Virus genome (UHGV): UHGV-0205053
Strand: one strand, 5' to 3'
DNA length: 40,900 nt
Source of the DNA: a virus
In this document: positions 1,116 through 25,962 of the stretch, piece after piece
Numbering within the stretch: position 1 is the stretch's first letter
Layout: every line of letters begins with the position of its first letter
Made by a program: the position numbers and the translations under genes
The notes under the pieces: model-generated
Seen by the model: only the letters and a program-made list of their open reading frames with translations
The model's database searches: none
Told to the model about the DNA's origin: nothing

Positions 1116-1130
1116 TTACCCATGGGGTAA
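1116..1130. promoter_or_regulatory. TTACC-CATGG-GGTAA palindromic operator overlapping the TSS of the Gly-zipper peptide promoter
   Basis: Perfect 5-5-5 inverted repeat. The same motif recurs at 10 or more sites in the window. It lies directly downstream of the TAATAT -10 element on the minus strand. Confidence 0.45.
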
Positions 1131-1285
1131 TATTACATCACTGATACGTGATAGCCAATTATTTTATAGCCGCATTGCCCTTTAAACAAAGGCACTTCCT
1201 TGTGCCAGCAGCCTCAGAACGCAGCTGTGTTTTTGGTGATGTACTGCGCGTGGGGCAGGTGTCGGCATAGAGCGTGATGCGCTTT

Positions 1286-1525
1286 TCACTTCCGCATTTT
1301 GAGGAGAATGAATACCACAATTAAAGAAAAAACTAGAAGTGGAATGCCATAACCACCTGATGGTGAAAATAACATATCTATATGCGAAGTATTGCTAACC
1401 ACAATTTCTGGAGGTGGGGTTTTACCTTTTGGTGGTGGGACATCAAACCCTGTTGGTTCTGGCAGGACGTTGCCAGAAGGAACATAACCGTTTTTGTATT
1501 CATCAGGTGTTGAGAAAACGGGCAT
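1286..1525 (-). CDS. 79-aa protein: N-terminal 32 aa homologous to the N-terminus of the 963-aa ejection protein (37982..40873), fused to a C-terminal TM anchor
   Basis: MPVFSTPDEYKNGYVPSGNVLPEPTGFDVPPP aligns with MPVYSSPEELSNGFTPAGNVLPEQTGFDVPLP. Good SD (AAGGAA) 8 nt upstream. C-terminus GYGIPLLVFSLIVVFILLKMRK is a TM helix with a positive tail. DNA identity is about 70 percent, so this is not a recent duplication. Confidence 0.5.
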   Translation of the reverse strand: MPVFSTPDEYKNGYVPSGNVLPEPTGFDVPPPKGKTPPPEIVVSNTSHIDMLFSPSGGYGIPLLVFSLIVVFILLKMRK

Positions 1526-1542
1526 GAATTATTCCTTGCAAA

Positions 1543-1896
1543 TCATATGGTTTTGTCGACCTTTTCATGTAATTTCACCAGCTCTGATCTTAAGAGCACC
1601 AATGGTGTCATTGCATCGACTATCGCGATAGTCAGTTTATCAAATTCTCTCTGCCACTCTTCACTTTTGCCATCTTCAGGGAGTGATTTCGCCAGCGCCC
1701 GATAACGCTCTACCAGTTCTTTGTGACTGCCAATGGCTACGGCTGGGGCACCAGAAAGCGCATCCTCAATCATTTGCACGATCTCTGAGTTCATGGAACG
1801 TCCGTTGCTTTTGGCTCGTTCAGCAACCGCATCACGCATCCCATCAGGGAATCTGAGGTTGAACTTATCCTGCATCTGGCTTGGGTATTTGCTCAT
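1543..1896 (-). CDS. mnt: Mnt/Arc-family ribbon-helix-helix repressor (Mnt-like, 117 aa)
   Basis: FNLRFPDGMRDAVAERAKSNGRSMNSEIVQMIEDAL matches the Arc/Mnt RHH signature (compare P22 Arc FNLRWPREVLDLVRKVAEENGRSVNSEIYQRV). Divergent from the arc-ant operon. SD AGGTGA. Confidence 0.7.
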   Translation of the reverse strand: MSKYPSQMQDKFNLRFPDGMRDAVAERAKSNGRSMNSEIVQMIEDALSGAPAVAIGSHKELVERYRALAKSLPEDGKSEEWQREFDKLTIAIVDAMTPLVLLRSELVKLHEKVDKTI

Positions 1897-1930
1897 AAGT
1901 CACCTGGAAAAATTATTCAAAATTATTATG

Positions 1931-1990
1931 GGGCCAAGTTGACATATTGCGCAATGGTGTTAAATTAATATCAGGTGTCAAGTTGGCCCC
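1931..1990. promoter_or_regulatory. Divergent Pmnt/Pant promoter-operator region flanked by a near-perfect 15-bp inverted repeat
   Basis: GGGGCCAAGTTGACA ... TGTCAAGTTGGCCCC (14/15 inverted). A TTGACA -35 hexamer faces each direction. Contains the 14-mer AAATTAATATCAGG that is repeated before cro. Confidence 0.5.
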
Positions 1991-2002
1991 AAGGAGGCTG
2001 AA

Positions 2003-2176
2003 ATGCAAAAATCACTTTGTACCGAACGTAAGAACATCAAATTAAACCTTAGGCTTCCAGAGAGGCTGGACCAAGAAATACGTCGCATGGCTGAAATGGA
2101 CTGCATTTCAATAAACTCTGCGATTGTGAGATTGCTAGCGAAGGGGGTGAGAGAGGAAAGGCTAAATGTGCAGTAA
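2003..2176 (+). CDS. arc: Arc-like ribbon-helix-helix repressor (57 aa); not in the ORF track because it is under 60 aa
   Basis: Strong SD AAGGAGG. KLNLRLPERLDQEIRRMAEMDCISINSAIVRLLAKG matches the Arc RHH signature. Sits between mnt and ant as in P22 immI. Confidence 0.7.
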   Translation: MQKSLCTERKNIKLNLRLPERLDQEIRRMAEMDCISINSAIVRLLAKGVREERLNVQ

Positions 2177-2246
2177 AAACAGTGAAGCCCAACGGTGTCC
2201 AGACCGTCAGGCTTCTAATTTGTCAGCAACTATCAGGTAAACCGAC

Positions 2247-3197
2247 ATGAATACTTTAGCACTGAAGCAAAATCATTGCACCATCAGCGTACCATTCCAC
2301 GGCACTGATCTGTTTGTGGTTAACCACAACGGCGAGCCATACACCCCTATGAAGCCGATTGTTGAAGGCATGGGTATGGACTGGGCTTCACAGTTTACGA
2401 AGATGAAGAAGCGTTTTAAATCAACCATTGTGGAAATCACAATGGTTGCCAGTGATGGTAAGTCTCGCTCGATGATCTGCCTTGCACTTCGCAAGTTGGC
2501 CGGCTGGCTCAATACCATCAGCCCAAACAAGGTTAAACCAGAAATCCGTGACCGCGTGATCCAGTATCAGGAAGAATGTGACGATGTGCTCTATGAATAC
2601 TGGACGAAAGGCCAAGTGGTTAACCCGCGCAAGGCTGCGAAGACTCAGCCTGGTAAAATCACCGCTGACCAGCAGTACGCCATTAAAGAAATGGTCATGT
2701 CTCGTGGACAGGCTCTTCCTAAGGATAAACAGGCTAAGGCCATTATCACAATGTGGTCTGCGTTAAAATCGCACTTTGGTGTTTCCTACAAAGATATCGA
2801 TGCCGGGCAGTTCAATGAAGCTGTGTCGCTCGTTGCCAGGATCCCCCTCGAAGGCGAATTAATCACCGCAAGAGAGATCTTCCTTGCTGAGGAAAAATTG
2901 AGTGCCGAAGTAGTGGAAGCTATCCGTGGGGTGGTAAAAAATAATACGAAGCGATATGAGGCATCTTTGAAGCCAGGCTACCGCGAGCACATCCATTCAC
3001 CTGAGGGCGTCCTTGGCTTGACGGAGCATTCACTGCTGATGAATCTCCTTCGTCAAATGGAAGATGATGGGCATGACGTCTCCGGGGCAGCAGCTGAGTT
3101 GACAACTATTTTCTGCTATGTGACAGGGGTTAGGCGCTGCATCAGCGACATTACTACCAACGCGCAGTATATTCTTAAGCAGGTGAAAGATTTTTAG
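2247..3197 (+). CDS. ant: Antirepressor Ant (AntA-like N-terminal domain plus C-terminal domain)
   Basis: N-terminus VPFHGTDLFVVNHNGEPYTPMKPIVEGMGMDW is typical of phage antirepressor N-terminal domains. Positioned after arc as in P22 immI. Confidence 0.7.
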   Translation: MNTLALKQNHCTISVPFHGTDLFVVNHNGEPYTPMKPIVEGMGMDWASQFTKMKKRFKSTIVEITMVASDGKSRSMICLALRKLAGWLNTISPNKVKPEIRDRVIQYQEECDDVLYEYWTKGQVVNPRKAAKTQPGKITADQQYAIKEMVMSRGQALPKDKQAKAIITMWSALKSHFGVSYKDIDAGQFNEAVSLVARIPLEGELITAREIFLAEEKLSAEVVEAIRGVVKNNTKRYEASLKPGYREHIHSPEGVLGLTEHSLLMNLLRQMEDDGHDVSGAAAELTTIFCYVTGVRRCISDITTNAQYILKQVKDF

Positions 3198-3199
3198 CA

Positions 3200-3640
3200 A
3201 TGGAAGGGCCGAGCATTCGGCCCATTCTTGAGGATCAGAACGTGAATAACCAGATTAAAGACCTTTGCTTCAAAGATAACGAATCAGCATTTGAATACGC
3301 GTGTAAGTATTGCACAACTGACATTGCAGAAAGACAAGGGCTTCTGGCGCTTGTTATTACGGATCAGGAACCAGATGGCGATGGTAACGCCTTATATGCA
3401 GTAAGGGTTTCATCCAATGACGGTGGATTTGTCGTTCCGGCTATTTTTATGGCAGCACAAGCTGATTTAGGCGCCTTAGTAAAAGGAGACCTTGTTATCT
3501 GGGTGCCATCACAGTATTCGGACGAAATGGCAAAAACGTTAGGCGATCCGAGAAAGGGATGGATGGGGTATTTATCAGCGAAAGTTGAACCAAAACTAAC
3601 TAAGTCAGATGGATGGGGAATTCAGGTCCGCTACATCTAG
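3200..3640 (+). CDS. Hypothetical protein co-transcribed with ant
   Basis: ATG lies 3 nt after the ant stop codon. No family recognised. Confidence 0.45.
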   Translation: MEGPSIRPILEDQNVNNQIKDLCFKDNESAFEYACKYCTTDIAERQGLLALVITDQEPDGDGNALYAVRVSSNDGGFVVPAIFMAAQADLGALVKGDLVIWVPSQYSDEMAKTLGDPRKGWMGYLSAKVEPKLTKSDGWGIQVRYI

Positions 3641-3647
3641 TATACTA

Positions 3648-3672
3648 GGCCGCTCATGCGGCCTTTTCTTTT
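3648..3672 (+). terminator. Rho-independent terminator (GGCCGCtcatGCGGCC plus TTTTCTTTT)
   Basis: GC hairpin followed by a T-run at the end of the arc-ant operon. Confidence 0.55.
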
Positions 3673-3931
3673 ATGTTGTTTCCTGCCTCAGCTTTTCCAC
3701 GCAGTAATCGAGATGCATCTGCAGATCCTTCATGGACATCTGCGAGCTGGTGACATAGTTCACCAGGGCAGTCAGCTCTGCCATCGGGCCATCAACATTA
3801 AAGCCATCCTCACCCAACTGGCGCAGCAACGTCATCAGGTGTGAATCTTCAACAAGGGAGCGGACGCCTCCCGGCGTGTGTATGCGTTCGGCAAAGCCTT
3901 TTTCCAGCGGGTGATGATACTGACGTTGCAT
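3671..3931 (-). CDS. Small stand-alone paralog of the Ant C-terminal domain, preceded by a LexA box; candidate SOS-induced antirepressor or modulator
   Basis: ERIHTPGGVRSLVEDSHLMTLLRQLGEDGFNVDGPMAELTAL aligns with the Ant C-terminus EHIHSPEGVLGLTEHSLLMNLLRQMEDDGHDVSGAAAELTTI. SD GGAGAAT precedes the ATG at 3931. The ORF track starts at 3949. Confidence 0.5.
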   Translation of the reverse strand: MQRQYHHPLEKGFAERIHTPGGVRSLVEDSHLMTLLRQLGEDGFNVDGPMAELTALVNYVTSSQMSMKDLQMHLDYCVEKLRQETT

Positions 3932-3950
3932 CTGATATTCTCCATGCATT

Positions 3951-3970
3951 CACTGTATGTATGTACAGTA
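3951..3970. promoter_or_regulatory. LexA (SOS) box cACTGTATGTATGTACAGTA
   Basis: CTGT-N8-ACAG with an AT-rich 8-nt spacer, a near-perfect fit to the E. coli LexA consensus TACTGTATATATATACAGTA. It lies about 20 nt upstream of the 3671..3931 gene. Confidence 0.6.
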
Positions 3971-4007
3971 GCAAAAGTCCTAATGACTATCCAGCACGAA
4001 TTGCTAT

Positions 4008-4022
4008 TTACCTAAAAGGTAA
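4008..4022. promoter_or_regulatory. TTACC-TAAAA-GGTAA palindromic operator between the LexA-regulated gene and the tailspike
   Basis: Perfect 5-5-5 inverted repeat of the recurring motif. Confidence 0.4.
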
Positions 4023-4126
4023 TAACTTCTGTGATTGTTATTCATTCAATTCATATAAGGTTTGCCAGGTAATAAACTGTCCAGATGATGCACGCGCGCC
4101 GGGCGCTGCTTTACAGGAGACAGGCC

Positions 4127-6553
4127 ATGACGGTATCAACCGTAGTTGACCATAACGATTACACCGGGAACGGCGTTACGACATCCTTCCCGTACACCTT
4201 TCGCATATTCAAGAAAACAGATCTGACCGTATCGGTTGTCGACCTGAGTGAAAACATCACGGTGCTGGTTCTGGACACTGACTACACGGTGACGAATGCC
4301 GGAGGCTATAACGGCGGCAGCGTGGTGCTCACCGCCCCGCTGACGAACGGCTGGCAGATCTCCATTGCACGTGAACTGGAGCCAACGCAGGAAACAGACC
4401 TGCGCAACCAGGGCAAGTTCTTCGCCGAGGTTCATGAAGACGCATTCGATAAACTGACGATGCTCATCCAGCAGGCATACAGCGTATTCCGTCTGGCGCT
4501 GCGGAAGCCATCGAGCATAGCGAACTGGTACGACGCACTGAACAACTACATCCGTAATCTGCGCGACCCTCGCGACCCCCAGGATGCAGCTACCAAGAAT
4601 TATGTTGATACGCTGGCGAGCGGGAACTTTAACCGCACTCTGCGAACCCCTGAAAACATCCCATCACTCCCAGGTGCTGCAACCAGGGCGAACAAAATCG
4701 TTGCCTTCGATAACTCCGGGAATCCAATTGTAACGTTACCTCCATCTGGCTCTGCATCAGACGTTCTTATTGAACTGGCAAAACCTACTGGCTCTACTTT
4801 GATCGGCGGCTCTGTTTATGTGGTCGATTCATTTTCAGCTGCCCTTGCTGCGAATGCAGGACAGTCAAAGTACATCATGACGCGTGGGCACCATGTTATC
4901 GGCATTGGGGCAGCGACTTATTTTAGTGATGGTACAACTGGCGCTCCATCAACTGGCAATGAGCTTAAATTTTTCGATGTGACCGGAAAGGGATGGTATC
5001 TTCGTCACGATGGCCGCATTGATTGTCGTCAATTCGGCGTTGTGGCGGATGGAAGCGATGAAACTACGAAGTTGCAATTATGGTTGGATTGCTGCGCTGC
5101 GGCGAAGGCAGAGGCATATATCCCTGCGGGGTTGCGACCAGCTGCAATCGGCATCGTTATAAACTCTACACACAACGGACTGCAATTTAAGTTCGATGGT
5201 TTCCTTAAGTTTTTTGGCAGCGGAAACACACCCATAAACAAACCGGCACATATCAACACTGGTGCCTGCTTCTGCCTTTATCTTGATGGTGTGTTTGATA
5301 TTTCTGGTGTTATTCGCATGGACGGCAACCGGGCGGACAAACTCAACCTGGAACAGGTTCATTGCATTGGTTTGTTTGGAGGCGGAAATCATAACGTAAG
5401 TTATGAGTTTAAAGAATGTCAGGGTGATGGTTTATATATTAGTCAGTTAAATGGAAATGCAAATTCTGCAATAGCTGAAAATATTATCATACCGTCTTTC
5501 AGATCATTTAACTCTGATTACTTTGGCAGAAATGCGCTGTCAGTTATCTCTGTTAATGGTTTAAAAATTGGCACTTTCGTATCCATCAAGCATGGCGGAC
5601 TTATCAATGCCGTTACTCAGCCCTGCGCTCTTGATATAGAACCTAATTACGGGTATCAAACGTGCAATAACATACAGATTGATAGCTACTACGCAAAATC
5701 CTGCGGTACAGGCTTCACTATTTTCGGCAAGGTGAACAATGGGAATTACAACGTTCGCAATGTATCCATCTCTAAGATGGAAATCGAAATGGAATATGTA
5801 GCCGCTAACAATAACAAAATCCGTGGGGCGATGCTGATGGGAGTTGATGGCTTGTATATCGGAAGCGCACAGGTTCGCTGCCTGTCAAACTATACCGAAA
5901 ACATCCCAGTCGGCGTCCAAATTGACTCATGCTATAACGCAGATATAAATTTCTCCACTGAGAGATTCTATCAAGGTGCTGCGGTTGGAGTTTACGGCTG
6001 GAGTGAAGTTGGTGGTGTTGCGAAAGTAGTCAATGCAAAAATATCTGTAACCCCAAGAATATTTCAACGCGGAGCCACTATCGGTGATGTTAACGGGTTA
6101 GATTTTACTCTTAGAGGGTTTACTCCAACGGCGATGTCATCTGGTAGCGATGTGGGACTTGTCCAAACAATTCAGGCAGGTGCTGTTGGTTCGTCAACAG
6201 CAGTAAAATCAGCTCGTCTATCGGTGTCAAGTGGTCCTGGTGCTGCTATTACATGGGGAATTTTCTGCTCAAATACCAATATTGAGAGGGATTCCTGTGT
6301 TATACAGGATTCAGACTTATCTGTTATCGCGCACAATGGTACGACAGCCAATAGACTGATCTCCACGGCAAACTTCCAAAAGAGGAACATAGCCGGTGTC
6401 ACGCCGAAGGGTGGGGCTGACACCATCACAGGCACTAATATCTGGGGTGTTGGGGATGTGGTCAACGACCCAACATCTCCAGCGGCAGGTGGTTACATAG
6501 GTAAAGTGTATACATCTGCCGGGTGGAAATCATATGGTGCTATAGCCAGCTAA
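4127..6553 (+). CDS. Tailspike or tail fiber: T7 gp17-like N-terminal particle-binding domain plus C-terminal parallel beta-helix (pectate-lyase-like depolymerase)
   Basis: The N-terminus (YTGNGVTTSFPYTFRIFKKTDLTVSVVD...EDAFDKLTMLIQQ) follows the T7 gp17 N-terminal pattern. The repetitive beta-helix sequence is typical of O-antigen or capsule depolymerases. SD AGGAGA precedes the ATG at 4127. The ORF track starts at 4085. Confidence 0.8.
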   Translation: MTVSTVVDHNDYTGNGVTTSFPYTFRIFKKTDLTVSVVDLSENITVLVLDTDYTVTNAGGYNGGSVVLTAPLTNGWQISIARELEPTQETDLRNQGKFFAEVHEDAFDKLTMLIQQAYSVFRLALRKPSSIANWYDALNNYIRNLRDPRDPQDAATKNYVDTLASGNFNRTLRTPENIPSLPGAATRANKIVAFDNSGNPIVTLPPSGSASDVLIELAKPTGSTLIGGSVYVVDSFSAALAANAGQSKYIMTRGHHVIGIGAATYFSDGTTGAPSTGNELKFFDVTGKGWYLRHDGRIDCRQFGVVADGSDETTKLQLWLDCCAAAKAEAYIPAGLRPAAIGIVINSTHNGLQFKFDGFLKFFGSGNTPINKPAHINTGACFCLYLDGVFDISGVIRMDGNRADKLNLEQVHCIGLFGGGNHNVSYEFKECQGDGLYISQLNGNANSAIAENIIIPSFRSFNSDYFGRNALSVISVNGLKIGTFVSIKHGGLINAVTQPCALDIEPNYGYQTCNNIQIDSYYAKSCGTGFTIFGKVNNGNYNVRNVSISKMEIEMEYVAANNNKIRGAMLMGVDGLYIGSAQVRCLSNYTENIPVGVQIDSCYNADINFSTERFYQGAAVGVYGWSEVGGVAKVVNAKISVTPRIFQRGATIGDVNGLDFTLRGFTPTAMSSGSDVGLVQTIQAGAVGSSTAVKSARLSVSSGPGAAITWGIFCSNTNIERDSCVIQDSDLSVIAHNGTTANRLISTANFQKRNIAGVTPKGGADTITGTNIWGVGDVVNDPTSPAAGGYIGKVYTSAGWKSYGAIAS

Positions 6554-6558
6554 ACATT

Positions 6559-6587: not shown

Positions 6588-6599
6588 ATGCTAGTTTTT

Positions 6600-7040
6600 T
6601 TAAAAAATTAGGATGAATGGAAACAGCAAATAGGCAATAACTTCCGTTGATAAAGACCACGCCGACTCAATAATTCCATTACCTGTTACAGATTGAGCAA
6701 AGATAATATTGCAAACGTAGGTGTAAAAAGAGCGAGCCTGATCAGTCTTGCTTGTGAAAAATATGAAAACTATGCTTACTGCAAAGAAGTAAAGAGGGTA
6801 AATCCTGGTGAATCTATTATATAAAAACTTCATATAGTTATTTTCACCCACCTTGCTGATGAATTTTTCTTTGTAGACGTAGCACATTATAAATCCACTT
6901 AGAACAAAGAATAGATCAACAGCTAAGTATCCATTTCTTATAAAATCTGAACTCCACCCCATTGGATTAATGTGGTAAAACATAACATATATGGCAAATA
7001 TGCCCCTAATTCCTGTTAAAGCTTTAATTTCTTTATTCAT
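6600..7040 (-). pseudogene. 3'-truncated acyltransferase-3 family (OafA/Oac-like O-antigen acetyltransferase) remnant in an AT-rich island
   Basis: N-terminal motifs LTGIRGIFAIYVMFYH and DLFFVLSGF are the acyltransferase-3 signature. Only 146 aa are present against a full length above 300 aa. The ORF ends at the tailspike terminator. Region is low-GC. Confidence 0.55.
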
Positions 7041-7391
7041 GTTTCAAACCCAAAGCCTAACGCTTGTGAAATAAAAATAGTATTGTAGCGTATTTTTTGA
7101 TTTGGCATGGATATGCCATGCAAAAAACAATCTCATGTTTGCATTTCTTTTTCAAAATATTTCCCTAAGGAACCAGTAGAAAGGATTTCTGGCACTCTCC
7201 ATGAGCGAAGCTGAGGTGAGAGAGGAAAAGATGAGCAAGAAGTATTGTTAAAGATCCTTTTAAAATGGATAGCGCACAAGCATACACCAAGTACACCCCA
7301 ATGAATGATCGTGTTTGTGACATCTATCGATGTGGACCTGAAGAATAACTTAAGCACTTTTTCATCCGTAAAATTCAAAGCCTCACTTTAT

Positions 7392-7406
7392 CACCTTTAA
7401 GGTAAT
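7392..7406. promoter_or_regulatory. Variant operator tCACCT-TTA-AGGTAA upstream of the lysis cassette
   Basis: Inverted repeat ACCT-TTA-AGGT with a 3-nt spacer, related to the extended form TTTACCT-CAC-AGGTAAA. Confidence 0.25.
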
Positions 7407-7501
7407 TTCGTTAAGAGTTATCTGATGAAGTTTAAACCACATATGGTTTATTGTGTATGATGAACTCACCAACTAAGGGGGTTCTTTATGCACATTAAAC
7501 G

Positions 7502-9480: not shown

Positions 9481-9536
9481 ATCTACTCATATCTATTCAC
9501 TCTACACCACATTTTTCGACGGTACAGGTGACGGTA

Positions 9537-9551
9537 TTACCCGAAAGGTAT
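9537..9551. promoter_or_regulatory. TTACC-CGAAA-GGTAT (9/10) operator-like site upstream of int
   Basis: One mismatch to the recurring motif. About 40 nt upstream of the int start. Confidence 0.3.
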
Positions 9552-9592
9552 ACTCTCATACCGACAAAACATGGATGCATTACGGGTGAATT

Positions 9593-10846: not shown

Positions 10847-11436
10847 GCAGCCTCCACGTTTACGACGTTGATCGCGCAGCCAGGCAATAATTGCACCGCC
10901 GGGCCTTCACACTGATTCCCCCAAACGTCAAACCCATGCGACGACTGGCGGGCGAAAAGCTCAATGCGCGGCACATCGCCCAGCAACTGCACAAGTTTTT
11001 CCCGGATTACGTCAGGCTTGCGCGAATTCTCCAGGCGCGGCGCCGTGACGTGCTGGCAGATAGAGGCGTCCATGCGGGTCGGCAGTTTCCCGCGTACCGC
11101 AAACAGACAGTCTTCGCTGTTCGCCCGGGTCATGTGCCCCATGCCGATCGCGCTGTTACCTTTGTGCTTATTCGTCTTGTGCCAGGTGAATCCCTTCATG
11201 GTCATCAGCTTGAATCCCCAGGCTTCGACCACCTTCAGCGCTTCGACTGGTTGAGTCGGAACCCACCACATAGCCAGCAGGAAATCTTCAGCAGCAAGAT
11301 CCCACACCGGCAGGCGGCAGATATCCAGCACGTTCATGACCGGGTATTTAAACCCAGCGCCGCGGTTTCCGTCGGCAGCTTTGTCACGGTAGACCCAGGG
11401 CGGATCTGCATAAATCAGGGTGTATTTACCGGTCAT
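10843..11436 (-). CDS. N6-adenine DNA methyltransferase, MT-A70 family (DPPW motif)
   Basis: IYADPPWVY motif with an MT-A70-like fold. SD AAGGTGG. Confidence 0.75.
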   Translation of the reverse strand: MTGKYTLIYADPPWVYRDKAADGNRGAGFKYPVMNVLDICRLPVWDLAAEDFLLAMWWVPTQPVEALKVVEAWGFKLMTMKGFTWHKTNKHKGNSAIGMGHMTRANSEDCLFAVRGKLPTRMDASICQHVTAPRLENSRKPDVIREKLVQLLGDVPRIELFARQSSHGFDVWGNQCEGPAVQLLPGCAINVVNVEAA

Positions 11437-11879
11437 GCCGCCACCTTCTTGCTGTTCATGAGCTCAGCCAGACGCTGAGCCTTAAATGGGTTCTGAATAA
11501 CCGGGCCGCCGGGTACCAGCCACCCGCGGCGCAATGATGAATAAACCAGCGTGATACTGCCTACGCGGATATTGTCGTGCGAATTAGTCATACACCACCC
11601 ACGACTACAGATGCCGCTGTATTCCAGGTGTGGAGTACGGTTACCTTTGGTGATGCACTGCTGCCGGCGCACCGCGATACGGGCGCGCTCTACTTCACCT
11701 ACGGCAGCATCCAGACACTGGAGCCAGAGGCGGGCAGCGATGCGGTAATGCCCGCGGCGCTCGCGGTCAATGGCCCGGCTTTCTATCTCCATCGCTTCCG
11801 GCGTTACTGCCACAACTCTTTCGATACGGCGCTGAGACACATAGTCTTCGTGATAGCGCTCAAGTTTCGTCTTTTTCAT
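11433..11879 (-). CDS. Hypothetical regulator, possibly PerC/ANR-like (W..AA..W..A motif)
   Basis: HYRIAARLWLQCLDAA resembles the ANR/PerC core. The likely start is the internal ATG (MKKTKLERY) with SD AGAGGT. The ORF track starts at 11963. Confidence 0.3.
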   Translation of the reverse strand: MKKTKLERYHEDYVSQRRIERVVAVTPEAMEIESRAIDRERRGHYRIAARLWLQCLDAAVGEVERARIAVRRQQCITKGNRTPHLEYSGICSRGWCMTNSHDNIRVGSITLVYSSLRRGWLVPGGPVIQNPFKAQRLAELMNSKKVAA

Positions 11880-11988
11880 TTGATCCAGACCTCTTAACTG
11901 ATTACCGCCGCCAGCCACATCAGGTAGGCGACAACGGCCAGATACAGGTATACATCTGACCATCTGCTGACATGCTTTATCAGCGCCG

Positions 11989-13992: not shown

Positions 13993-14288
13993 GCCGCGTT
14001 CCTCGCCGTGTCCAGCTGGTCAGCCAGATCCCACTTAGCGATGATGCTGGTCATCGCGGCCTGGTACGCTGCGAGAGCCTCTTCAAATTCAGCGCTCATC
14101 ATCAGCTCTTCAAGAATCTCGGTGCGCACGCCTTTGCGACCAAGCTCGTAAAACGGCGCCTGTAGCTGGTGGTGCTTAATTGCGTCGATCAGCTCTACCT
14201 GGCGCTCGTAGTGCAGCTGGCTCAGCTGATAGTCGCTGTCGATACTGGTCATGATTTTTTTCAGGTTGTTAATCTGCTGGATGTTCAC
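13989..14288 (-). CDS. Hypothetical protein
   Basis: ORF with a GTG start overlapping the stop codon of the upstream small ORF. Confidence 0.35.
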   Translation of the reverse strand: MNIQQINNLKKIMTSIDSDYQLSQLHYERQVELIDAIKHHQLQAPFYELGRKGVRTEILEELMMSAEFEEALAAYQAAMTSIIAKWDLADQLDTARNAA

Positions 14289-14434
14289 TTGCTCACCCCC
14301 ATATTCATTTCAGTTTTTACTGCCATCTTGGTGACAAACGCCCAGTTGATGGCCTCATGCAGAGTGCGGCACTTGGTGCTCATCAGCCCGCACGCCGTAA
14401 CGCAGTACCAACCGTTGATGATTTTCCACTGCAT
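14285..14434 (-). CDS. 49-aa Cys-rich small protein, first gene of the leftward early operon
   Basis: SD GAGGT 9 nt upstream of the ATG at 14434. Four Cys residues (CVTACGLMSTKC). Its stop overlaps the GTG start of the next gene (GTGA). Not in the ORF track because it is under 60 aa. Confidence 0.3.
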   Translation of the reverse strand: MQWKIINGWYCVTACGLMSTKCRTLHEAINWAFVTKMAVKTEMNMGVSK

Positions 14435-14440
14435 AATTCG

Positions 14441-14528
14441 TTACCTCAGTGTTACCGTTGAGGTAATAATTATCCTTATGTGGTTTGAAGTCAATAGGTA
14501 TGATTATAAAAAATTACCCGTAAGGTAA
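14441..14528. promoter_or_regulatory. OL-like region: TTACCTCA-N10-TGAGGTAA (14441-14466) and TTACC-CGTAA-GGTAA (14514-14528)
   Basis: Two copies of the recurring palindrome family between the repressor gene's 3' end and the start of the leftward early operon. Confidence 0.45.
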
Positions 14529-14540
14529 TTTTAAGGGCAA

Positions 14541-14585: not shown

Positions 14586-15176
14586 TTACTCTTGCGTTTT
14601 ACCGTTCTGAACAATCACGAAATCGACGTAGCTCTCGATCTTACTTTTCTCGCTCTCAGGTAACAATGCGTAGCGGGCCCGGTCGTAATGAATGGTCGCC
14701 GGGTCGCGGGGATGGATGAGCAGTTCATAGCCGCGGCGCCCGAACGCGCTGGCGATCGCCTCCAGGGTGGAGATAGAAACGCTAACCTCGTTGTTCAGCA
14801 TGCGGTTGATTGTCGCCTGGGCAACGCCGGACGCTTTCGACAGCTTGCCCTGGGAGGACAGGTCGCGGTTGTTTTGCATCCACAACTCGAGGTTATGCGC
14901 CGCCAGCTGGCCAATGTCGGAAGGGGTGATTTCTTCCTGGGGGATGGCAACGGCAGATAATGAGTGGTCGATGTCCAGCCAGTTGGTAGGCTTGTTCGCC
15001 GCTTTCTCAAGTTTTCGGGCAACAGTATCGCCGACAACCTTCTGACCGCGGGCCCAGCGGTTAACCAGGTTCGCCTGAGTGCCCAGTTTTTCCGCCAGAC
15101 GAGTCTGCACCCCGTTAAAGTCACGGTCGATGATATCGTTAATATTCTGCCTGCGGATATCCTGAATACTTTTCAT
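14586..15176 (-). CDS. CI-like lysogeny repressor with tandem HTH domains and no S24 peptidase domain
   Basis: Two XRE/CI-like HTH segments (GVQTRLAEKLGTQANLVNRWARGQ and LSKASGVAQATINRMLNN). Divergent from a Cro-like gene. No Ala-Gly/Ser/Lys autocleavage module. Confidence 0.55.
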   Translation of the reverse strand: MKSIQDIRRQNINDIIDRDFNGVQTRLAEKLGTQANLVNRWARGQKVVGDTVARKLEKAANKPTNWLDIDHSLSAVAIPQEEITPSDIGQLAAHNLELWMQNNRDLSSQGKLSKASGVAQATINRMLNNEVSVSISTLEAIASAFGRRGYELLIHPRDPATIHYDRARYALLPESEKSKIESYVDFVIVQNGKTQE

Positions 15177-15231: not shown

Positions 15232-15294
15232 TTACCTCACAGGTAAATGCACCCAACAGGTAACAAACCTTGATTTTTATTACCTTCTGGGTGA
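15232..15294. promoter_or_regulatory. OR-like tripartite operator: TTACC-TCACA-GGTAA (perfect; extends to TTTACCT-CAC-AGGTAAA), a half-site GGTAA at 15259, and TTACC-TTCTG-GGTGA (9/10)
   Basis: Read in the repressor/cro intergenic region. Geometry resembles 17-bp lambdoid operators. Confidence 0.55.
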
Positions 15295-15330: not shown

Positions 15331-15561
15331 ATGACCGAGAACGAAAAATTCGATTTCAAAAAACACTGGTTGCAACTCACTCCTGATGAGCGAAATGCCT
15401 TTGCAGACGAGGCCGGAACGACCAGCCACTACATCCAGACGCATCTCACAGGCCGCCGGAAAATGCCCGGTAAGACATTGATGAATGGGCTGTTTAAGGC
15501 ATGTAAACAACGCGGCTGGGTCAGAACAAAGCCGGAACTGGCTATCTTCTTCTACGAATAA
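15331..15561 (+). CDS. cro: Cro-like small HTH regulator
   Basis: 76 aa, divergent from the repressor gene. HTH-like segment NAFADEAGTTSHYIQTHLTG. Confidence 0.55.
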   Translation: MTENEKFDFKKHWLQLTPDERNAFADEAGTTSHYIQTHLTGRRKMPGKTLMNGLFKACKQRGWVRTKPELAIFFYE

Positions 15562-15582: not shown

Positions 15583-15608
15583 AGGCCGCCTTCTGGCGGT
15601 CTTTTCAT
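15583..15608 (+). terminator. tR1-like terminator after cro (GGCCGCC-ttct-GGCGGTC plus TTTTC)
   Basis: Hairpin plus T-run between cro and the downstream early genes. Confidence 0.5.
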
Positions 15609-15712
15609 ATCTATTCAGTCCTCTTGGGTAATAATGATCCGAATATGGTTGATCTTTTTTCGGCCATCGCACAAAATTACCGATAACAATAACCAAACGA
15701 GGGGCCGTTTTC

Positions 15713-17609: not shown

Positions 17610-17686
17610 TTACCCTGCAGGTAACAAAATATGCGCATAGCTATTGATTTTAACTCTAATGTGGATTTAAATTACCTGAGAGGTAA
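17610..17686. promoter_or_regulatory. Two perfect operators, TTACC-CTGCA-GGTAA (17610-17624) and TTACC-TGAGA-GGTAA (17672-17686); the second overlaps the SD of the next gene
   Basis: Both are 5-5-5 perfect inverted repeats. The second is GAGGTAAGTCATG, the RBS of the 17690 gene. Confidence 0.45.
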
Positions 17687-17689
17687 GTC

Positions 17690-19673: not shown

Positions 19674-19676
19674 CCC

Positions 19677-20468
19677 ATGAGCACTATTACCAGAGAACGT
19701 CTGCAGAGATTAATCCGCGCAATTAATAGCGAAAATTACGACGAAGAGGAAATAGTTGAGTGTGTTAACTCTGATGAAATTTTGGAGCTGGCGCGTATCG
19801 CGCTGGCATCGCTCGAAGCTGAGCCTGTGGCGTGGGCGCACAGATTAATCAACAAGCGTAACGGAGTCGCTCACCCTTGGGTTTACGGTAGCGCAGAGGC
19901 ATGTCCAAGCGAGGGGGATATCTTCAATATTGAGGTAATGCCACTTTACACAGCCCCGCCAGCGCCGGTATCTGTGCCGGATGAAGTTACTGCTGAAGAT
20001 TGCCCGGCATTCGTCAAGTATGACGTTACTGATGCAGATGAGGCATGGGCTCGCGGATTTAACGCCTGCCGCAACGCCATGCTTCAGGGTGCCGATCGAC
20101 CACAAAACGAACCGCAAAATATTCCGGAAAATATTCCAGCCACACAGTTTAAGCCGGTAGCAGACCTGTACGGCTTAACCTCACCAACTGGCGGTGAAAC
20201 ATCGTTCACTTTCGACGCTGTTGAAGCTCGCGATTTTATTGATGGCGGGTGGTCATGTCAGGAGTACGTGGAGCTTGAACGCTTTCAGGAGGCTGTGAGC
20301 GGCAACTCTCCGGTGGTGCCGGATGGTTATGCTCTGGTGCCGGTTGAGCCGACAACCAATCAATGGGCTGCCGGAATGCAAGCCTTTGATTCTGGAATGG
20401 ACAAAGTTACACGAGTATACAAAGCCATGCTCGCAGCAGCGCCGCAGCAGGAGGATAAAAATGTCTAA
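19677..20468 (+). CDS. Hypothetical protein
   Basis: SD GAGGA. Confidence 0.4.
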   Translation: MSTITRERLQRLIRAINSENYDEEEIVECVNSDEILELARIALASLEAEPVAWAHRLINKRNGVAHPWVYGSAEACPSEGDIFNIEVMPLYTAPPAPVSVPDEVTAEDCPAFVKYDVTDADEAWARGFNACRNAMLQGADRPQNEPQNIPENIPATQFKPVADLYGLTSPTGGETSFTFDAVEARDFIDGGWSCQEYVELERFQEAVSGNSPVVPDGYALVPVEPTTNQWAAGMQAFDSGMDKVTRVYKAMLAAAPQQEDKNV

Positions 20469-20787: not shown

Positions 20788-20824
20788 TGTGATATAAAAC
20801 CCCTTCATGGTGGAGGGGTTGACT

Positions 20825-21064: not shown

Positions 21065-21137
21065 CACCTAACCCATTCGACTTCGTGATGTTCGTGCTGC
21101 TGGCAATCGGCGCACTTCAGCAAATGGGGTGGCTGCC

Positions 21138-21344: not shown

Positions 21345-21712
21345 TGGACTATTCACAGTTATCAGATTTTGAAATTAACAGCGCAGTACATAATGCGAAA
21401 CTAAAAGAGCCTTATGCTCTGGTGTTCATGGGTGATGATCGAATTGCATGGACGAAAGAAAATGGTGATCAAATTATCACGGAGAAAGTTCCTTACACCA
21501 AAAATGGAGTGCATGACTACTGCAACAACCCGGCAGACGCATGGCCGATCATTGTTGGTAGCAAGATAAACATCAGGTTCGGTGCGGAAGGGATGGCTTG
21601 TGAGGCTCAGTTTATGCAGTACGGACATGAGAGTGTGGAGTGCTACCACGCCAACCCCCTCCGTGCTGCAATGATTGTCTTCCTCATGATACAGGAAAAT
21701 CAGAATGGCTAA
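21344..21712 (+). CDS. Hypothetical protein
   Basis: SD GAGGTGGGG. TGATG overlap. Confidence 0.4.
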   Translation: MDYSQLSDFEINSAVHNAKLKEPYALVFMGDDRIAWTKENGDQIITEKVPYTKNGVHDYCNNPADAWPIIVGSKINIRFGAEGMACEAQFMQYGHESVECYHANPLRAAMIVFLMIQENQNG

Positions 21713-22043
21713 GACAGCAGCAGAACGCAAAGCAGCGCAGCGGGCCCGCCAGGCGGAAGCAGGAGAGCGAAAGCTTGAACTGGTACTCGACGAGCAGGAA
21801 ATAGAGATGCTGGCGCGGAACTGCGCCGAGCGGCGACCGGGTCGTGAGCCATACGAACTGAGCGAGTACATTGCTCTGCTGATCCGCCAGGATGATGCGC
21901 GAGTTCGCGGTCGTATAAAAGTCATCAGCGCAAAGCGGTGCGGCAAGTGCGGCGACAGCCTGCCGGTGAAGTCCTGCCCGTGCACTGGCGATTCTGCATG
22001 CTGGGTGACTAACGGCTGGCATGAAACGAAACTTGCAGTGTGA
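21705..22043 (+). CDS. Small basic protein with a C-terminal Cys cluster (CGKCG...CPCTGDSAC); candidate late-gene regulator
   Basis: Last gene before the late-structural region. Has a zinc-finger-like cluster. Its stop overlaps the GTGAC-GT-GTCAC palindrome. Confidence 0.35.
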   Translation: MAKTAAERKAAQRARQAEAGERKLELVLDEQEIEMLARNCAERRPGREPYELSEYIALLIRQDDARVRGRIKVISAKRCGKCGDSLPVKSCPCTGDSACWVTNGWHETKLAV

Positions 22044-22080
22044 CGTGTCACGACGTGTTGACTAAATCCTCACATGATTA

Positions 22081-22100
22081 TACTGTTTAAATGTACAGTA
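22081..22100. promoter_or_regulatory. LexA (SOS) box TACTGTTTAAATGTACAGTA
   Basis: Perfect CTGT-N8-ACAG with TA flanks. Lies 20 nt upstream of the 22121 ATG (SD GAGGT). Confidence 0.65.
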
Positions 22101-22120
22101 TATTTATGTGAGGTTCCATT

Positions 22121-22450
22121 ATGGGCTTTCCATCTCCGGCAGCAGACTACGCAGAAGCATCTCTCACCATCACCAGCCTTTGCGGCTTCGACGGCAATTG
22201 TCGCGCCATCGAGACGTCAGCGGGCTATGCAATCATCAACGTTGCCAACAAACCAGATCCGGGTGACACCGTGCTGATTTCGTATTGTGGCCGCACGGAG
22301 TTCGCCATTGTCCAGGGAAAGGCGCTGATCACTCCGGAAGGTGAAGCACTCGAAGGCGAGGCGCTGGAAGACACGACAGTGCATGGCGTGGTTACTCACT
22401 TCCTGAACCGTGTTGGCCGCCAGGACGACGAACCAATACCAGTCATGTAA
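22121..22450 (+). CDS. UmuD'-like S24-fold protein lacking the catalytic Ser; begins at the UmuD cleavage-site equivalent; LexA-regulated
   Basis: The N-terminus MGFPSPAADY equals the UmuD' N-terminus (UmuD is cleaved at C24/G25 to give GFPSPAADY...). Conserved blocks PGDTVLIS, EFAIVQGKAL and TVHGVVTHF follow the S24 beta-fold. The GDSM Ser motif is replaced by SAGYA. Confidence 0.55.
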   Translation: MGFPSPAADYAEASLTITSLCGFDGNCRAIETSAGYAIINVANKPDPGDTVLISYCGRTEFAIVQGKALITPEGEALEGEALEDTTVHGVVTHFLNRVGRQDDEPIPVM

Positions 22451-22472
22451 CATCTGCGCGGGCGTGATAGTA

Positions 22473-22508
22473 TTACCTGCATGGTAATAAAATTACTCAG
22501 GTGGTAAT
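22473..22508. promoter_or_regulatory. Operators TTACC-TGCAT-GGTAA (perfect; extends to ATTACC...GGTAAT) and TTACT-CAGGT-GGTAA (9/10) overlapping the TerS start
   Basis: Read immediately upstream of and overlapping the terminase small subunit start codons. Confidence 0.45.
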
Positions 22509-23139
22509 GATGCCCGCGACGCCAAAAACCCACAAACGCAAATCAACGCAATATAAGCCTCTTACAGCGATGATGGAGGCTTACTGCCAGTCCTACATTA
22601 AGACACCTGAGAACCAGACTCAGGCGGCGATTAACGCAGGATTTTCGCCTAATACGGCAGCCGTCAAAGCAAGCAACATGATGCGCGACGAAAGAATCCA
22701 GAAACGAATCGCTGAACTGATGGAAGAGCGCAACAAGCGGAACCGCGTCAGCGCTGATTACGTCCTCATGCGCCTGGTGGAGATCGACCAGATGGATGTG
22801 CTGGACATACTGAACGACGATGGCGGGATGAAGCCTATTGCTGAATGGCCGAAGGTATGGCGCACCTCGCTCAGTGCGATGGATATAGCCACCATCAAGA
22901 CCACTCAGGCCTCACTGCAAAAAGAGAATGGCGAGGCGGAACTCTCTGTTGAGGATGTCGAGCATATCCTGAAGAAGGTGAAGTGGCCGGACAAGGTTAA
23001 GAATCTCGAGCTGATTGGTAAGCATGTCGACGTCAACGCGTTCAAAGAGCGCCTGGAAGTTTCCGGTACCGTAACCATCGCCGACCGCATGGCCGCCGCC
23101 CGGCGCCGCGTCAAAGAGCAGGCTGGTGGTGAAGAATGA
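22507..23139 (+). CDS. terS: Terminase small subunit
   Basis: AYCQSYIKTPENQTQAAINAGFSPNTAAVKASNMMRDERIQKRI matches the terminase-small N-terminal HTH family. ATGA overlap with TerL. Confidence 0.7.
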   Translation: MMPATPKTHKRKSTQYKPLTAMMEAYCQSYIKTPENQTQAAINAGFSPNTAAVKASNMMRDERIQKRIAELMEERNKRNRVSADYVLMRLVEIDQMDVLDILNDDGGMKPIAEWPKVWRTSLSAMDIATIKTTQASLQKENGEAELSVEDVEHILKKVKWPDKVKNLELIGKHVDVNAFKERLEVSGTVTIADRMAAARRRVKEQAGGEE

Positions 23140-24611
23140 CAGCCACAGCTATGTCGCCGGAAGAGCAGCTCGTCGAGGATATCGCTTCGTTCACGTATGA
23201 CCCGCTGGGCTATGCGATGTATGCGTTCCCGTGGAGCGAGGAAGGAACAGAGCTGGCGCACGCAACTGGTCCGCGTAAATGGCAGGCAGATGCATTCCGC
23301 GAGATACGCGATCACCTCCAGAACCCCGCGACACGTCACCAGCCTCTGATGCTGGCCCGCGCATCCGGCCACGGTATCGGCAAATCCGCTTTCATCTCGA
23401 TGCTCATCAACTGGGGTATGTCGACCTGCGAGGACTGCAAGGTGGTGGTGACCGCCAACACCGACAACCAGCTGCGCACCAAGACCTGGCCGGAAATCAT
23501 CAAATGGTCGAACCTGGCCATCACGAAAGAGTGGTTCACCTGCACCGCCACGGCGATGTACAGCAACGACCCGGGCCACGACAAACGCTGGCGCGCTGAC
23601 GCAATCCCGTGGTCAGAGCACAACACCGAGGCGTTCGCCGGTCTGCACAACGAGCGCAAACGCATCATCGTGGTATTCGACGAAGCGTCCAACATTGCCG
23701 ATCTGGTCTGGGAAGTAGCCGAGGGCGCGCTGACGGACGAAGACACGGAAATCATTTGGGTGGCGTTCGGGAACCCGACGCGTAACACCGGGCGTTTCCG
23801 CGAATGCTTCCGCAAGTACAAGCACCGCTGGAAGTGTGCGCAGATTGACAGCCGTACCGTAGAAGGCACGAACAAGCAGCAGTTGCAGAAGTGGGTTGAC
23901 GACTACGGCGAGGACAGCGACTTCGTGAAGGTCCGTGTGCGGGGGATCTTTCCTGACGCGTCAGAACTCCAGTTTATCCCGACCGGGCTAACTGACGAGG
24001 CAATGAAGCGCGTAGTGACCGCTGCGCAGGTGGCGCACGCACCGGTGATTATCGGCGTTGACCCGGCTTATTCCGGCGTGGATGACGCAGTGATATACCT
24101 GCGGCAGGGGCTGCACAGCAAGGTGCTGTGGACCGGCAACAAGACTACCGACGATCTGATTATGGCTAAGCGTATCGCCGACTTTGAGGACCAGTACCAG
24201 GCTGACGCAGTGTTTATCGACTTTGGTTACGGCACCGGGCTGAAGTCCATAGGTGACGGCTGGGGCCGGACGTGGCAGCTAATCCCGTTCGGCGGCGGCT
24301 CGACAGATCCGCAGATGCTCAACAAACGCGGTGAGATGTTCAACAGCTGTAAAACATGGCTTAAGCTCGGCGGCGCGCTGGATGACCAGGAGACTGCTGA
24401 TGACCTGTCAGCGGCAGAGTACAAAGTCAGGGTGGATGGTAAGATCGTCATTGAGCCGAAGGAGGATATCAAAGACCGGTTAGGCCGTTCGCCGGGAAAG
24501 GGTGACGCGCTGCTGCTGACGTTTGCTTTCCCGGTTACAAAACGCCTGCGCATTCCTGGTCAGGAGAGCCAGCAGGGTAAGGCGGTCACAGAATATGACC
24601 CATGGAAATAG
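23136..24611 (+). CDS. terL: Terminase large subunit (ATPase plus nuclease)
   Basis: Walker A motif in RASGHGIGKSA. Size and position fit. Confidence 0.85.
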   Translation: MTATAMSPEEQLVEDIASFTYDPLGYAMYAFPWSEEGTELAHATGPRKWQADAFREIRDHLQNPATRHQPLMLARASGHGIGKSAFISMLINWGMSTCEDCKVVVTANTDNQLRTKTWPEIIKWSNLAITKEWFTCTATAMYSNDPGHDKRWRADAIPWSEHNTEAFAGLHNERKRIIVVFDEASNIADLVWEVAEGALTDEDTEIIWVAFGNPTRNTGRFRECFRKYKHRWKCAQIDSRTVEGTNKQQLQKWVDDYGEDSDFVKVRVRGIFPDASELQFIPTGLTDEAMKRVVTAAQVAHAPVIIGVDPAYSGVDDAVIYLRQGLHSKVLWTGNKTTDDLIMAKRIADFEDQYQADAVFIDFGYGTGLKSIGDGWGRTWQLIPFGGGSTDPQMLNKRGEMFNSCKTWLKLGGALDDQETADDLSAAEYKVRVDGKIVIEPKEDIKDRLGRSPGKGDALLLTFAFPVTKRLRIPGQESQQGKAVTEYDPWK

Positions 24612-24693
24612 TTAATAAAATCAATGGGCGCGATTTTTCGCGGGTTAAAACAAAGCCCGCGCATTGGCGGGCTGATTGTGACATGTCACGGCG

Positions 24694-25065
24694 TTACTTA
24701 ATGGCATCAAATCCAGCGTTGATGGCTTCCGCAATATTGGCCGCATTGGTTTTATCAAATTGCCCATTTTGAATAAGCGCAGCATGCAGGCATTGCAACT
24801 TCATGTTGTATAAGTGCTCACTTCGGTAATCGGCATCTGATTTTGATAGTCCATTTTCGAATGTTTCATGTAGTCCGCCGCCCATGTTGTACCACTGCCA
24901 ACACTTACCGAACTCACGATTCAGATCGCCATCATTCAGTCCATCAATCACTGACAGGTCAGATACCGCGTATTCATGTTCAGGCTGATATCCTTCGCCG
25001 ATAGCTTGTTTCAGGTATTCTATCATCTCGCCGCGTGGCGGATTAAGTTCTTCAATCTCTCTCAT
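24694..25065 (-). CDS. Opposite-strand moron gene of unknown function
   Basis: SD AAGGTGAG precedes the ATG at 25065. It has its own minus-strand terminator downstream at 24647-24668 and another hairpin plus T-run just upstream. The ORF track starts at 25164. Confidence 0.4.
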   Translation of the reverse strand: MREIEELNPPRGEMIEYLKQAIGEGYQPEHEYAVSDLSVIDGLNDGDLNREFGKCWQWYNMGGGLHETFENGLSKSDADYRSEHLYNMKLQCLHAALIQNGQFDKTNAANIAEAINAGFDAIK

Positions 25066-25075
25066 GATTCTCACC

Positions 25076-25102
25076 TTAAAAAAATGCCCGGACGAACCGG
25101 GC
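25076..25102 (-). terminator. Minus-strand hairpin GCCCGG-acgaa-CCGGGC followed by a T-run, abutting the moron gene's RBS
   Basis: On the minus strand the hairpin is followed by TTTTTTTT. Confidence 0.4.
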
Positions 25103-25947
25103 GAATAATCAACGGAGTGCCTTCCTTGGCGGGTGATGCAGGGTTTACAGCGCAACGTCATCAAAATGGCGTTCTGCTGTAAAAAGGGCGGTGGTCAGTC
25201 CATCATGGGCGTAACTGCCACCGCCAAAACTACACGCATTGCCTGGTACTGCCGTATCACGGTCCTAAGGCGTGATTGGGTTATGGTGGCCGGTGCTGAT
25301 CTCCGGCTTGAAATATGCTCAGTGTTAGCTGCCACTCTCTCAAGAGGATATGCGTCATGATTTTCACTGAGTTTGCTGGGTAACCCTGACTTCCGGCTAT
25401 TCACGCAGCTTGTCTTCCAACTCAGGCTTATGCCTTACCCATTCCCCCACGTTCACGGGGTGCGCATCAGCCTGCGCATTCACCACAACGGAAAGAGCAC
25501 TGCATTCTTTTCAATCTTGGCGTTGAATGGTGCTATTAGACCAATCAGCCAACATACAATGCTCAATCCTGTTATGGCCTCGTCTCTTCCTAGGTGCCAC
25601 ACCGTATCGCCATGATGGTGAGTCGTCATGTCGTGCATACCGATAACACTGACTTGCACATTCCGGTTACCCGCTTGGCCAGTAAACAGCAAGGGAGCCA
25701 TCGGACCGCTGCGGCACATGTGCCATATACCGTACTGCTCACACCTGGAAGCGCACTCACCAGTTTTGATTTAGCGACAAGACCTCTCAGAACCGATATC
25801 GAAGTGCGCTTGCATGTTGTGTGCGGAGATGATGCTCCGCTTATCCACCGCCTTTACTTTTAAGCCCAATATGCTGCTGCGGTACTCCGGGCTACTACAT
25901 AAGCGGTTACATAACCACCTCCGCAATCAGATTGATTTCTCAACTTG

Positions 25948-25962
25948 TTACCTGAAGGGTAA
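25948..25962. promoter_or_regulatory. TTACC-TGAAG-GGTAA operator upstream of the head-gene operon
   Basis: Perfect 5-5-5 inverted repeat about 90 nt upstream of the gp6.7-like gene. Confidence 0.4.

Follow-up and report, generated by a model that had tools for sequence, protein, structure and literature searches.

As annotated in the RefSeq record of phage epsilon15 (NC_004775), seven features labelled 'protein_bind: repressor, lysogeny' read ATTACC-N5-GGTAAT. They lie before TerS (12-27), before the head operon (2931-2947), between gp19, a homologue of the antirepressor gene ant, and the tail fibre gene (19895-19911), three times at the early-left start, and after the replication genes (35906-35922). 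The repressor Rep of Salmonella phage SPC32H is reported to bind palindromes in tetrameric form; a single tetramer is said to be enough for repression, and the tetrameric antirepressor Ant to split it into dimers (PMC9638917). The tetramerisation domain of Rep is described as a DNA-looping 'TetDloop' fold (PMC9986798), and the PDB entries for the SPC32H switch are 5D50 and 5D4Z. Here, we describe the same 17-bp palindrome and a homologous repressor in the UHGV virus genome UHGV-0205053, a stretch of 40,900 nucleotides referred to below as the window. Based on the comparisons that follow, the palindrome is likely to be the operator of the phage's own lysogeny repressor, Rep (14586..15176), in the manner of epsilon15/SPC32H-type phages of Salmonella and E. 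coli.

The window was scanned for TTACCNNNNNGGTAA (TTACC-N5-GGTAA, in a 5-5-5 arrangement) against a background of dinucleotide-preserving shuffles. Nine perfect matches were found where 0.02 are expected (starts 1116, 4008, 14452, 14514, 15232, 17610, 17672, 22473, and 25948), and at least two perfect matches were reached in 0 of 100 whole-window shuffles. With at most one mismatch, the count rises to 14 against 0.47 expected in whole-window shuffles, the additional starts being 7391, 9537, 15280, 22493, and 33174. On a gene map drawn from open reading frames and homology, 8.5% of the window is intergenic, with a G+C content of 44%, and each of the nine perfect sites is centred there, as are 13 of the 14 found when one mismatch is allowed (binomial P ~1e-13). 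Shuffling the intergenic DNA alone gave an expectation of 0.004 perfect and 0.14 near-perfect sites. The exception is the 9/10 match at 33174; it is probably a chance match because it lies in the coding sequence of a structural gene and is not conserved in the relatives. In addition, an 8/10 site at 15249 occupies the position held by the middle operator in SPC32H and epsilon15. The symmetrised consensus, taken over 64 perfect sites from seven genomes, is the 17-mer A-TTACC-N5-GGTAA-T, with A or T at the outer positions. Collectively, the predicted operator map comprises 15 sites in 10 slots and is nearly complete.

These counts bear on an earlier note on this DNA, which had described the palindrome and proposed a comparison with shuffled sequence. 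The palindrome is real and far above chance, and the comparison returned a motif that is strongly enriched and largely confined to intergenic DNA. The coordinates of the eight perfect sites in the note are all correct, as are the 9/10 sites at 9537 and 15280, while the site placed at 22494 begins at 22493. A supposed variant with a 3-nt spacer at 7392 is a normal 5-5-5 site with one mismatch at 7391, TCACCTTTAAGGTAA. The long-arm variant at 14441-14466 does exist, as TTACCTCA-N10-TGAGGTAA, but the ninth perfect site inside it, 14452, had been overlooked; the 14441 arm is an additional half-site 11 bp from the 14452 site. The sites listed have their centres in intergenic DNA, as stated, and the motif does head nearly all transcription units.

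At the DNA level, the immunity and replication region is most similar to Enterobacter phage BUCT554, with 90% identity across 59% of the query; phiV10, SPN1S/SPC32H, and other Uetakevirus members come next. By its marker genes, which are collinear with those of these relatives, the window is an epsilon15-like podophage of Uetakevirus. To map the slots, sites with at most one mismatch were placed against marker genes in seven genomes: the window, BUCT554, SPC32H, phiV10, epsilon15, BUCT711, and Tyrion. The same slots, namely TerS, the head operon, ant/tailspike, holin, int, the early-left start, rep/cro, and DUF1064/RuvC, hold the 17-bp palindrome ATTACC-N5-GGTAAT in the window and in all six relatives. 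Their internal arrangement also recurs. The TerS slot contains a pair 18-20 bp apart, the second site covering the start codon; the head slot contains a single site 87-106 bp 5' of the gp3 reading frame; and the ant/tailspike slot contains a single site between both genes. A single site lies 111 bp 5' of the first holin open reading frame in six of the seven genomes, and another 56-57 bp 5' of int, with a GGTAT arm in all seven. The early-left slot holds a pair spaced by 62-63 bp, the rep/cro slot two or three sites between the genes, and the DUF1064/RuvC slot, in 7/7 genomes, a pair 62 bp apart whose second member covers the ribosome-binding site. Among 61 pairs of adjacent sites in 13 genomes and prophages, 22 are spaced by 62 bp, about six helical turns. 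The motif also surrounds rep in six prophages with Rep homologues, from Erwinia, Superficieibacter, Klebsiella, Citrobacter, and Scandinavium. Arms are kept in 6-7 of the seven genomes while flanks and spacers drift; this high conservation is partly built in, the sites having been selected by their arms, and the evidence lies only in the presence of a site in each slot.

Compared with epsilon15, the window shares the labelled slots at TerS, the head operon, the tail fibre/ant region, the early-left start, and the gene after the replication genes. The epsilon15 record leaves the rep/cro, holin, int, and second DUF1064/RuvC sites unlabelled, although they are present there. In contrast, the early-left start of epsilon15 carries three sites, the third of which is matched in the window by no more than a half-site, and the window has an additional site at a moron promoter (1116). 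The two Reps belong to different clades and are 44% identical, and the window spacers begin with a pyrimidine and are richer in G+C. Similarly, SPC32H shares the peptidase-less Rep, the small Ant, a LexA box at ant, and the same palindromes in the same slots; however, its Rep is only 44% identical to that of the window, which adds a second, P22-type antirepressor with an Arc-like regulator.

The predicted sites of the window are as follows; as palindromes, they are given without strand.

1116..1130, moron operator: adjoins the -10 of the leftward promoter TTGGCT(1158-1153)-17-TAATAT(1135-1130); gene 890..1090 for a Gly-rich membrane protein
4008..4022, ant/tailspike operator: between divergent units; orthologue of epsilon15 19895-19911
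7391..7405, holin site: 9/10, 111 bp 5' of the first holin open reading frame; perfect in epsilon15
9537..9551, int site: 9/10, 56 bp 5' of int
14441..14466, early-left proximal operator and half-site: perfect at 14452-14466, extra half-site at 14441-14445
14514..14528, early-left distal operator: just past the rep terminator (14565-14546), 62 bp from 14452
15232..15246, rep-proximal operator: perfect, in the rep/cro intergenic region
15249..15263, middle operator: degenerate, 8/10, GCACCCAACAGGTAA
15280..15294, cro-proximal operator: 9/10, between the -35 and -10 of a rightward cro-like promoter
17610..17624, DUF1064 distal operator: directly past the terminator of the replication genes; orthologue of epsilon15 35906-35922
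17672..17686, DUF1064 proximal operator: adjoins the -10 (TTGATT-17/18-TTAAAT) and covers the ribosome-binding site GAGAGG
22473..22507, TerS operator pair: 22473 perfect, 22493 9/10 and over the start codon; orthologue of epsilon15 12-27
25948..25962, head operon (gp3/portal) operator: inside a weak promoter match TTCTCA-18-AATAAT; orthologue of epsilon15 2931-2947

Two layouts emerge from the promoter matches. At early-left, DUF1064, and the moron, the operator adjoins the -10, whose last T is the first T of TTACC, and covers +1; early-left (TTGACT-17-AATTAT, leftward, its -10 adjoining operator 14466-14452) and DUF1064 also have a second operator 62 bp upstream, right after the terminator of the preceding unit. 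At cro, and more weakly at the head operon and TerS, the operator lies between the -35 and the -10, with its right arm entering the -10; the cro-like promoter reads TTGATT(15270-15275)-N17/18-GAATAT/AATATT. On the other strand, 15232 probably overlaps a weak leftward rep promoter, TTGGGT-16-TAAATT, and 15249 stands 17 bp from 15232, which is the spacing of the perfect pair in SPC32H, epsilon15, and BUCT711. At PL and PR, and likewise at the DUF1064 and 1116 promoters, the geometry is that of repression. An overlap with Shine-Dalgarno sequences or start codons, as pointed out before, is confirmed for two sites: 17672 covers the ribosome-binding site of DUF1064, and 22493 the start codon of TerS. 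A sigma-70-like promoter overlaps the operator at only 5-6 units, and the proposal that one regulator gates the whole genome was therefore overstated.

The arm TGAGGTAA of the early-left operator also serves as the ribosome-binding site of a 49-aa gene at 14285..14434. The early-left transcript would begin within the operator 14441-14466 on the minus strand, and the CCUCA of its leader pairs with UGAGG, which would sequester this ribosome-binding site; the CCUCA/UGAGG arrangement of the leader is kept in BUCT554, phiV10, and Tyrion.

A second conserved element, ATAWGGTT-N7-TAWKAW, occurs at 4055-4075, 7441-7461, and 26007-26027 (three copies against 0.12 expected, for a pattern derived post hoc from the alignment itself). 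It is limited to the regions upstream of the tailspike, holin, and head genes, 27-47 bp downstream of operator-type sites, and has a -10-like end and no -35. Its pattern and placement make it a candidate signal of late promoters, to be read by a separate factor.

Two proteins encoded beside the densest sites could read the operator.

14586..15176, minus strand, rep: putative motif binder with two helix-turn-helix domains and no peptidase; PDB 5D50_A (SPC32H repressor), residues 1-192, E 2e-47
15331..15561, plus strand, cro-like gene, 76 aa: possible second binder; phrog_35 transcriptional repressor, E 1e-9

The Pfam search of Rep returned a YdaS-like helix-turn-helix at 21-61 and HTH_3 at 108-148 and no Peptidase_S24, the C-terminal half being the HTH_3 domain; the product had rightly been called a peptidase-less repressor, and it is a full-length homologue of SPC32H Rep. 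It aligns end to end with six Uetakevirus Reps. The helix NLVNRW, presumed from the HTH_3 pattern to be the recognition helix, is invariant in these seven Reps, which are otherwise 44-96% identical, and thereby parallels the invariant TTACC arm. Site density is highest on both sides of rep, with 14452 and 14514 downstream and 15232, 15249, and 15280 between rep and cro. Distant Rep homologues were sought in genome contigs to test for covariation of the arm with an altered recognition helix. The scan yielded Reps with the same helix and three relatives in the N-terminal part only (Paraburkholderia, Hydrogenovibrio), which have different helices; with these three, neither a TTACC-N5-GGTAA site nor a recurrent palindrome was found. 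Since the scan was uninformative on the arms, spacer covariation between two Rep clades was used instead. Position 6, the first spacer base, is A in 4 of 68 half-sites of window-like Reps versus 29 of 64 of SPC32H-like Reps (P 1.5e-7, a value inflated, like the other clade P values, because orthologous sites are related and not independent). With window-like Reps, 86% of half-sites have a pyrimidine directly after TTACC, whereas A is commonest with SPC32H-like Reps, and spacer G+C is 0.38 versus 0.14. This covariation fits an immunity-region protein, Rep or Cro, as the binder.

Besides this inflation, several points weigh against Rep as the common reader of all sites. The covariation fits Rep and its cro-like neighbour alike, both of which diverge in parallel, and the epsilon15 repressor-site annotation is itself a prediction. 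At tailspike/ant and int, no promoter match scoring 8/12 or better extends over the site, and only weak ones lie near the holin site; 4008 stands 14 bp upstream of the predicted ant -35 and overlaps no strong promoter. Because no strong promoter match overlaps these sites, repression at ant/tailspike, holin, and int can be proposed only tentatively. The int site is imperfect in every one of the seven genomes, and its epsilon15 orthologue overlaps an annotated, that is predicted, integrase-binding site (26873-26882). The 9537 site may be an operator or a piece of the attP/Int arm region, and may belong to attP instead of, or besides, the repressor regulon. In the window (9520-9575) and in the orthologous int-upstream regions of six relatives, GGTA/GGTAT repeat units, including GGTAT-N6-ATACC, surround the site.

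It is possible, though doubtful, that the single sites 4008, 7391, and 9537, and perhaps also 25948, are not promoter operators but serve as anchors for looping, were left over from module exchange, or, in the case of 9537, belong to attP. The missing core promoter overlap at 4008 and 9537, the merely weak matches near 7391, and the invariable GGTAT of 9537 with its overlap of a predicted Int arm site in epsilon15 all speak for this, as does the looping-type tetramerisation domain described for Rep (PMC9986798). However, arms kept in 6-7 of seven genomes despite drifting flanks and spacers argue for a sequence-specific binder at every slot, and looping anchors would remain Rep operators. A reading of the palindromes mainly by the cro-like protein 15331..15561, or by another small phage regulator, is unlikely; in its weaker form, the sites are shared with Rep, as between lambda CI and Cro. 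The cro-like gene adjoins the densest site cluster, belongs to the repressor family phrog_35, and diverges along both clades, so that the spacer covariation fits it equally. Against this, palindromic operators are ascribed to Rep both in the annotation of epsilon15 and in publications on SPC32H, and the recognition helix of Rep is as invariant as the arms. Moreover, a pairwise comparison detected no similarity of the cro-like protein to Rep or its DNA-binding domain. Operators shared by Rep and Cro are plausible and do not conflict with Rep as the lysogeny repressor that binds the motif. Less probable still is a global late activator, for instance the phrog_536 regulator 21705..22043 or the PerC-like protein 11433..11963, that would turn on the late, lysis, and tail units. 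Sites do precede TerS, the head operon, the tailspike, and the holin, where good -35 boxes are lacking; but of the 15 sites, eight belong to early or immunity promoters, and several of these eight adjoin or cover -10/+1 in a repressive position, which makes an activator unlikely, and the tailspike, holin, and head units have ATAWGGTT-N7-TAWKAW as the better candidate for a late signal. Of the two regulators suggested in the earlier note, the peptidase-less repressor is thus the best candidate, as predicted here, and a global late factor fits poorly.

The remaining two explanations are still weaker. RNA hairpins acting as terminators, processing sites, or translational control elements are very improbable. 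Each site can form a stem of 4-5 bp, 14440-14467 was flagged as terminator-like, and two sites cover ribosome-binding sites; but the stems are weak (-2.6 to -5.2 kcal/mol), a T-rich tail is present at 14440-14467 only, the distal sites lie upstream of promoters and hence would not be transcribed with the unit, and conservation is confined to the arms, with compensatory change absent. Rfam and tRNA scans gave no match, and the hairpin explanation was rejected because of the weak stems and these empty scans. The flanks of the sites resemble -10 boxes (GGTAAT-AAT) and intergenic G+C is just 44%, as would suit a motif arising by chance or as a by-product of AT-rich promoter DNA; the chance of this is negligible, as the shuffles rule it out (0 of 100 reach two perfect sites, and 0.004 are expected against nine observed in intergenic DNA alone), and the slots are syntenic in seven genomes.

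Among better known circuits, lambda resembles the window in the tripartite operator between divergent rep and cro, the second cluster at early-left, and the overlap with -35 and -10. In contrast, the late, lysis, and int units of lambda are free of operators, and its CI is cleaved with RecA, whereas the operators of the window are dispersed and induction is predicted to proceed through an antirepressor; the C-terminal S24 peptidase of lambda-type CI is absent here. P1 C1 provides a closer likeness: a single lysogeny repressor acts on many separate operons through more than 12 dispersed 17-bp operators scattered over the genome and is inactivated by an antirepressor (Coi/Ant) and not by cleavage. 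However, the operators of P1 lack symmetry and each binds a monomer, its proteins have no relation to those of the window, and P1 is a plasmid prophage. The 'stoperators' of L5 gp71 and the conserved inverted repeats of Streptomyces phiC31, which are 17-bp palindromes too, likewise provide many intergenic repressor-site copies for global silencing of the prophage. L5 sites are asymmetric, orientation-dependent, and block elongation inside operons, whereas the sites of the window are perfect palindromes at unit heads; several of them overlap core promoters, and the proteins and hosts are unrelated to those of L5 and phiC31. All testable defining features of the epsilon15/SPC32H Rep-Ant-LexA switch with dispersed operators were found, and by sequence the system of the window is of this kind.

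The antirepressor part of the switch consists of the following features.

3671..3949, minus strand, ant: small SPC32H-type antirepressor, likely start 3931; PDB 5D50_E over its full length, E 1.4e-44
3951..3970, no strand, LexA box CACTGTATGTATGTACAGTA: perfect CTGT-N8-ACAG, conserved in 7/7 genomes
2247..3197, plus strand, large antirepressor, 316 aa: P22_AR_N, Pfam PF10547, E 1.5e-46

The predicted ant promoter has a -35 TGGATA (3993-3988), a 17-bp spacer, and a -10 TACTGT (3970-3965) inside the LexA box. The C-terminal 80 residues of the large antirepressor (235-314) match the small Ant 5D50_E (E 3e-13), which suggests that its module may be a second, LexA-independent way to inactivate Rep. 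This module (1543-3640) is immI-like, with the Arc-like regulator 1543..1896 on the minus strand divergent from the large antirepressor gene; for window 1-3700, a megablast search of the phage collection returned nothing. An extra perfect site just 3' of the small ant gene is present in phiV10 (20497), BUCT711 (20977, reverse complement), and Tyrion (21393); in phiV10 and Tyrion, a large Bro-N/antirepressor gene follows it, while the large antirepressor of the window comes instead with the Arc-like regulator.

Taking these elements together, we propose the following mechanism. The N-terminal helix-turn-helix of Rep would read the half-site TTACC and its C-terminal domain would form tetramers, each of two DNA-binding dimers holding two palindromes together. 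A tetramer with two dimers would explain the 62-bp operator pairs that bracket the early-left and DUF1064 promoters, with one site upstream of the -35 and the other adjoining the -10 and covering +1. The promoters blocked by Rep in the lysogen would be those of cro, early-left, DUF1064, TerS, and the moron, and probably that of the head operon as well; from its single sites near ant/tailspike, holin, and int, Rep may act as an indirect repressor that loops the DNA or obstructs upstream elements. Induction would require no cleavage of Rep: DNA damage would take LexA off the box at 3951-3970, and the small Ant then produced would dismantle the Rep tetramer and free all operators together. More tentatively, and with the odds rather against it, the whole may form one physical network, in which Rep tetramers bridge the 62-bp pairs and also distant units, early, late, lysis, integration, and accessory promoters are silenced directly, one pulse of Ant frees them all, and late timing comes from the separate ATAWGGTT-N7-TAWKAW element. 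The literature searched yielded no description of the full extent of such a network, including the holin, int, second TerS, and moron sites.

Further observations concern the neighbouring regions. Past the cro terminator, at 15603-15650, BUCT554, phiV10, BUCT711, and Tyrion carry a 9/10 site; the window there has the right half only (GGGTAATAAT), followed by AATATGGTT. Within 22058-22450, the promoter TTGACT-17-TACTGT is covered by a perfect LexA box, TACTGTTTAAATGTACAGTA (22081-22100), just 5' of a UmuD-like gene (phrog_3469, 109 aa) that separates the regulator gene from TerS. The UmuD-like gene is also present in BUCT554 and BUCT711 and, from this box, looks like an SOS-controlled accessory gene. 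On the minus strand at 6600-7378, the genes for serotype conversion seem to be truncated: of the 326 positions of an acyltransferase-3 profile, a 146-aa protein matches 1-143 only, and of the 120 positions of a GtrA-like family, an 81-aa protein matches 1-40 only.

Since the dispersed sites are already annotated in epsilon15, the novelty that had been implied for them is not upheld, and since multi-operator repressors are also known from P1, L5, and phiC31, current understanding is unchanged. Specific to the window are its Rep clade, the operator at the 1116 moron promoter, and the second antirepressor module. The map provides a near-complete predicted operator set for an undescribed epsilon15-like phage, and its conservation extends through the genus and to related prophages from five or more genera. 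It can be used to annotate prophages, to predict mutual immunity, and to design Rep/Ant-based switches; the two Rep clades, which have the TTACC arm in common and differ in the spacer, bear on the prediction of immunity. If the network proposed above is true, the lysogeny circuit of these phages would be flat, with a single tier, unlike the cascade of lambda.

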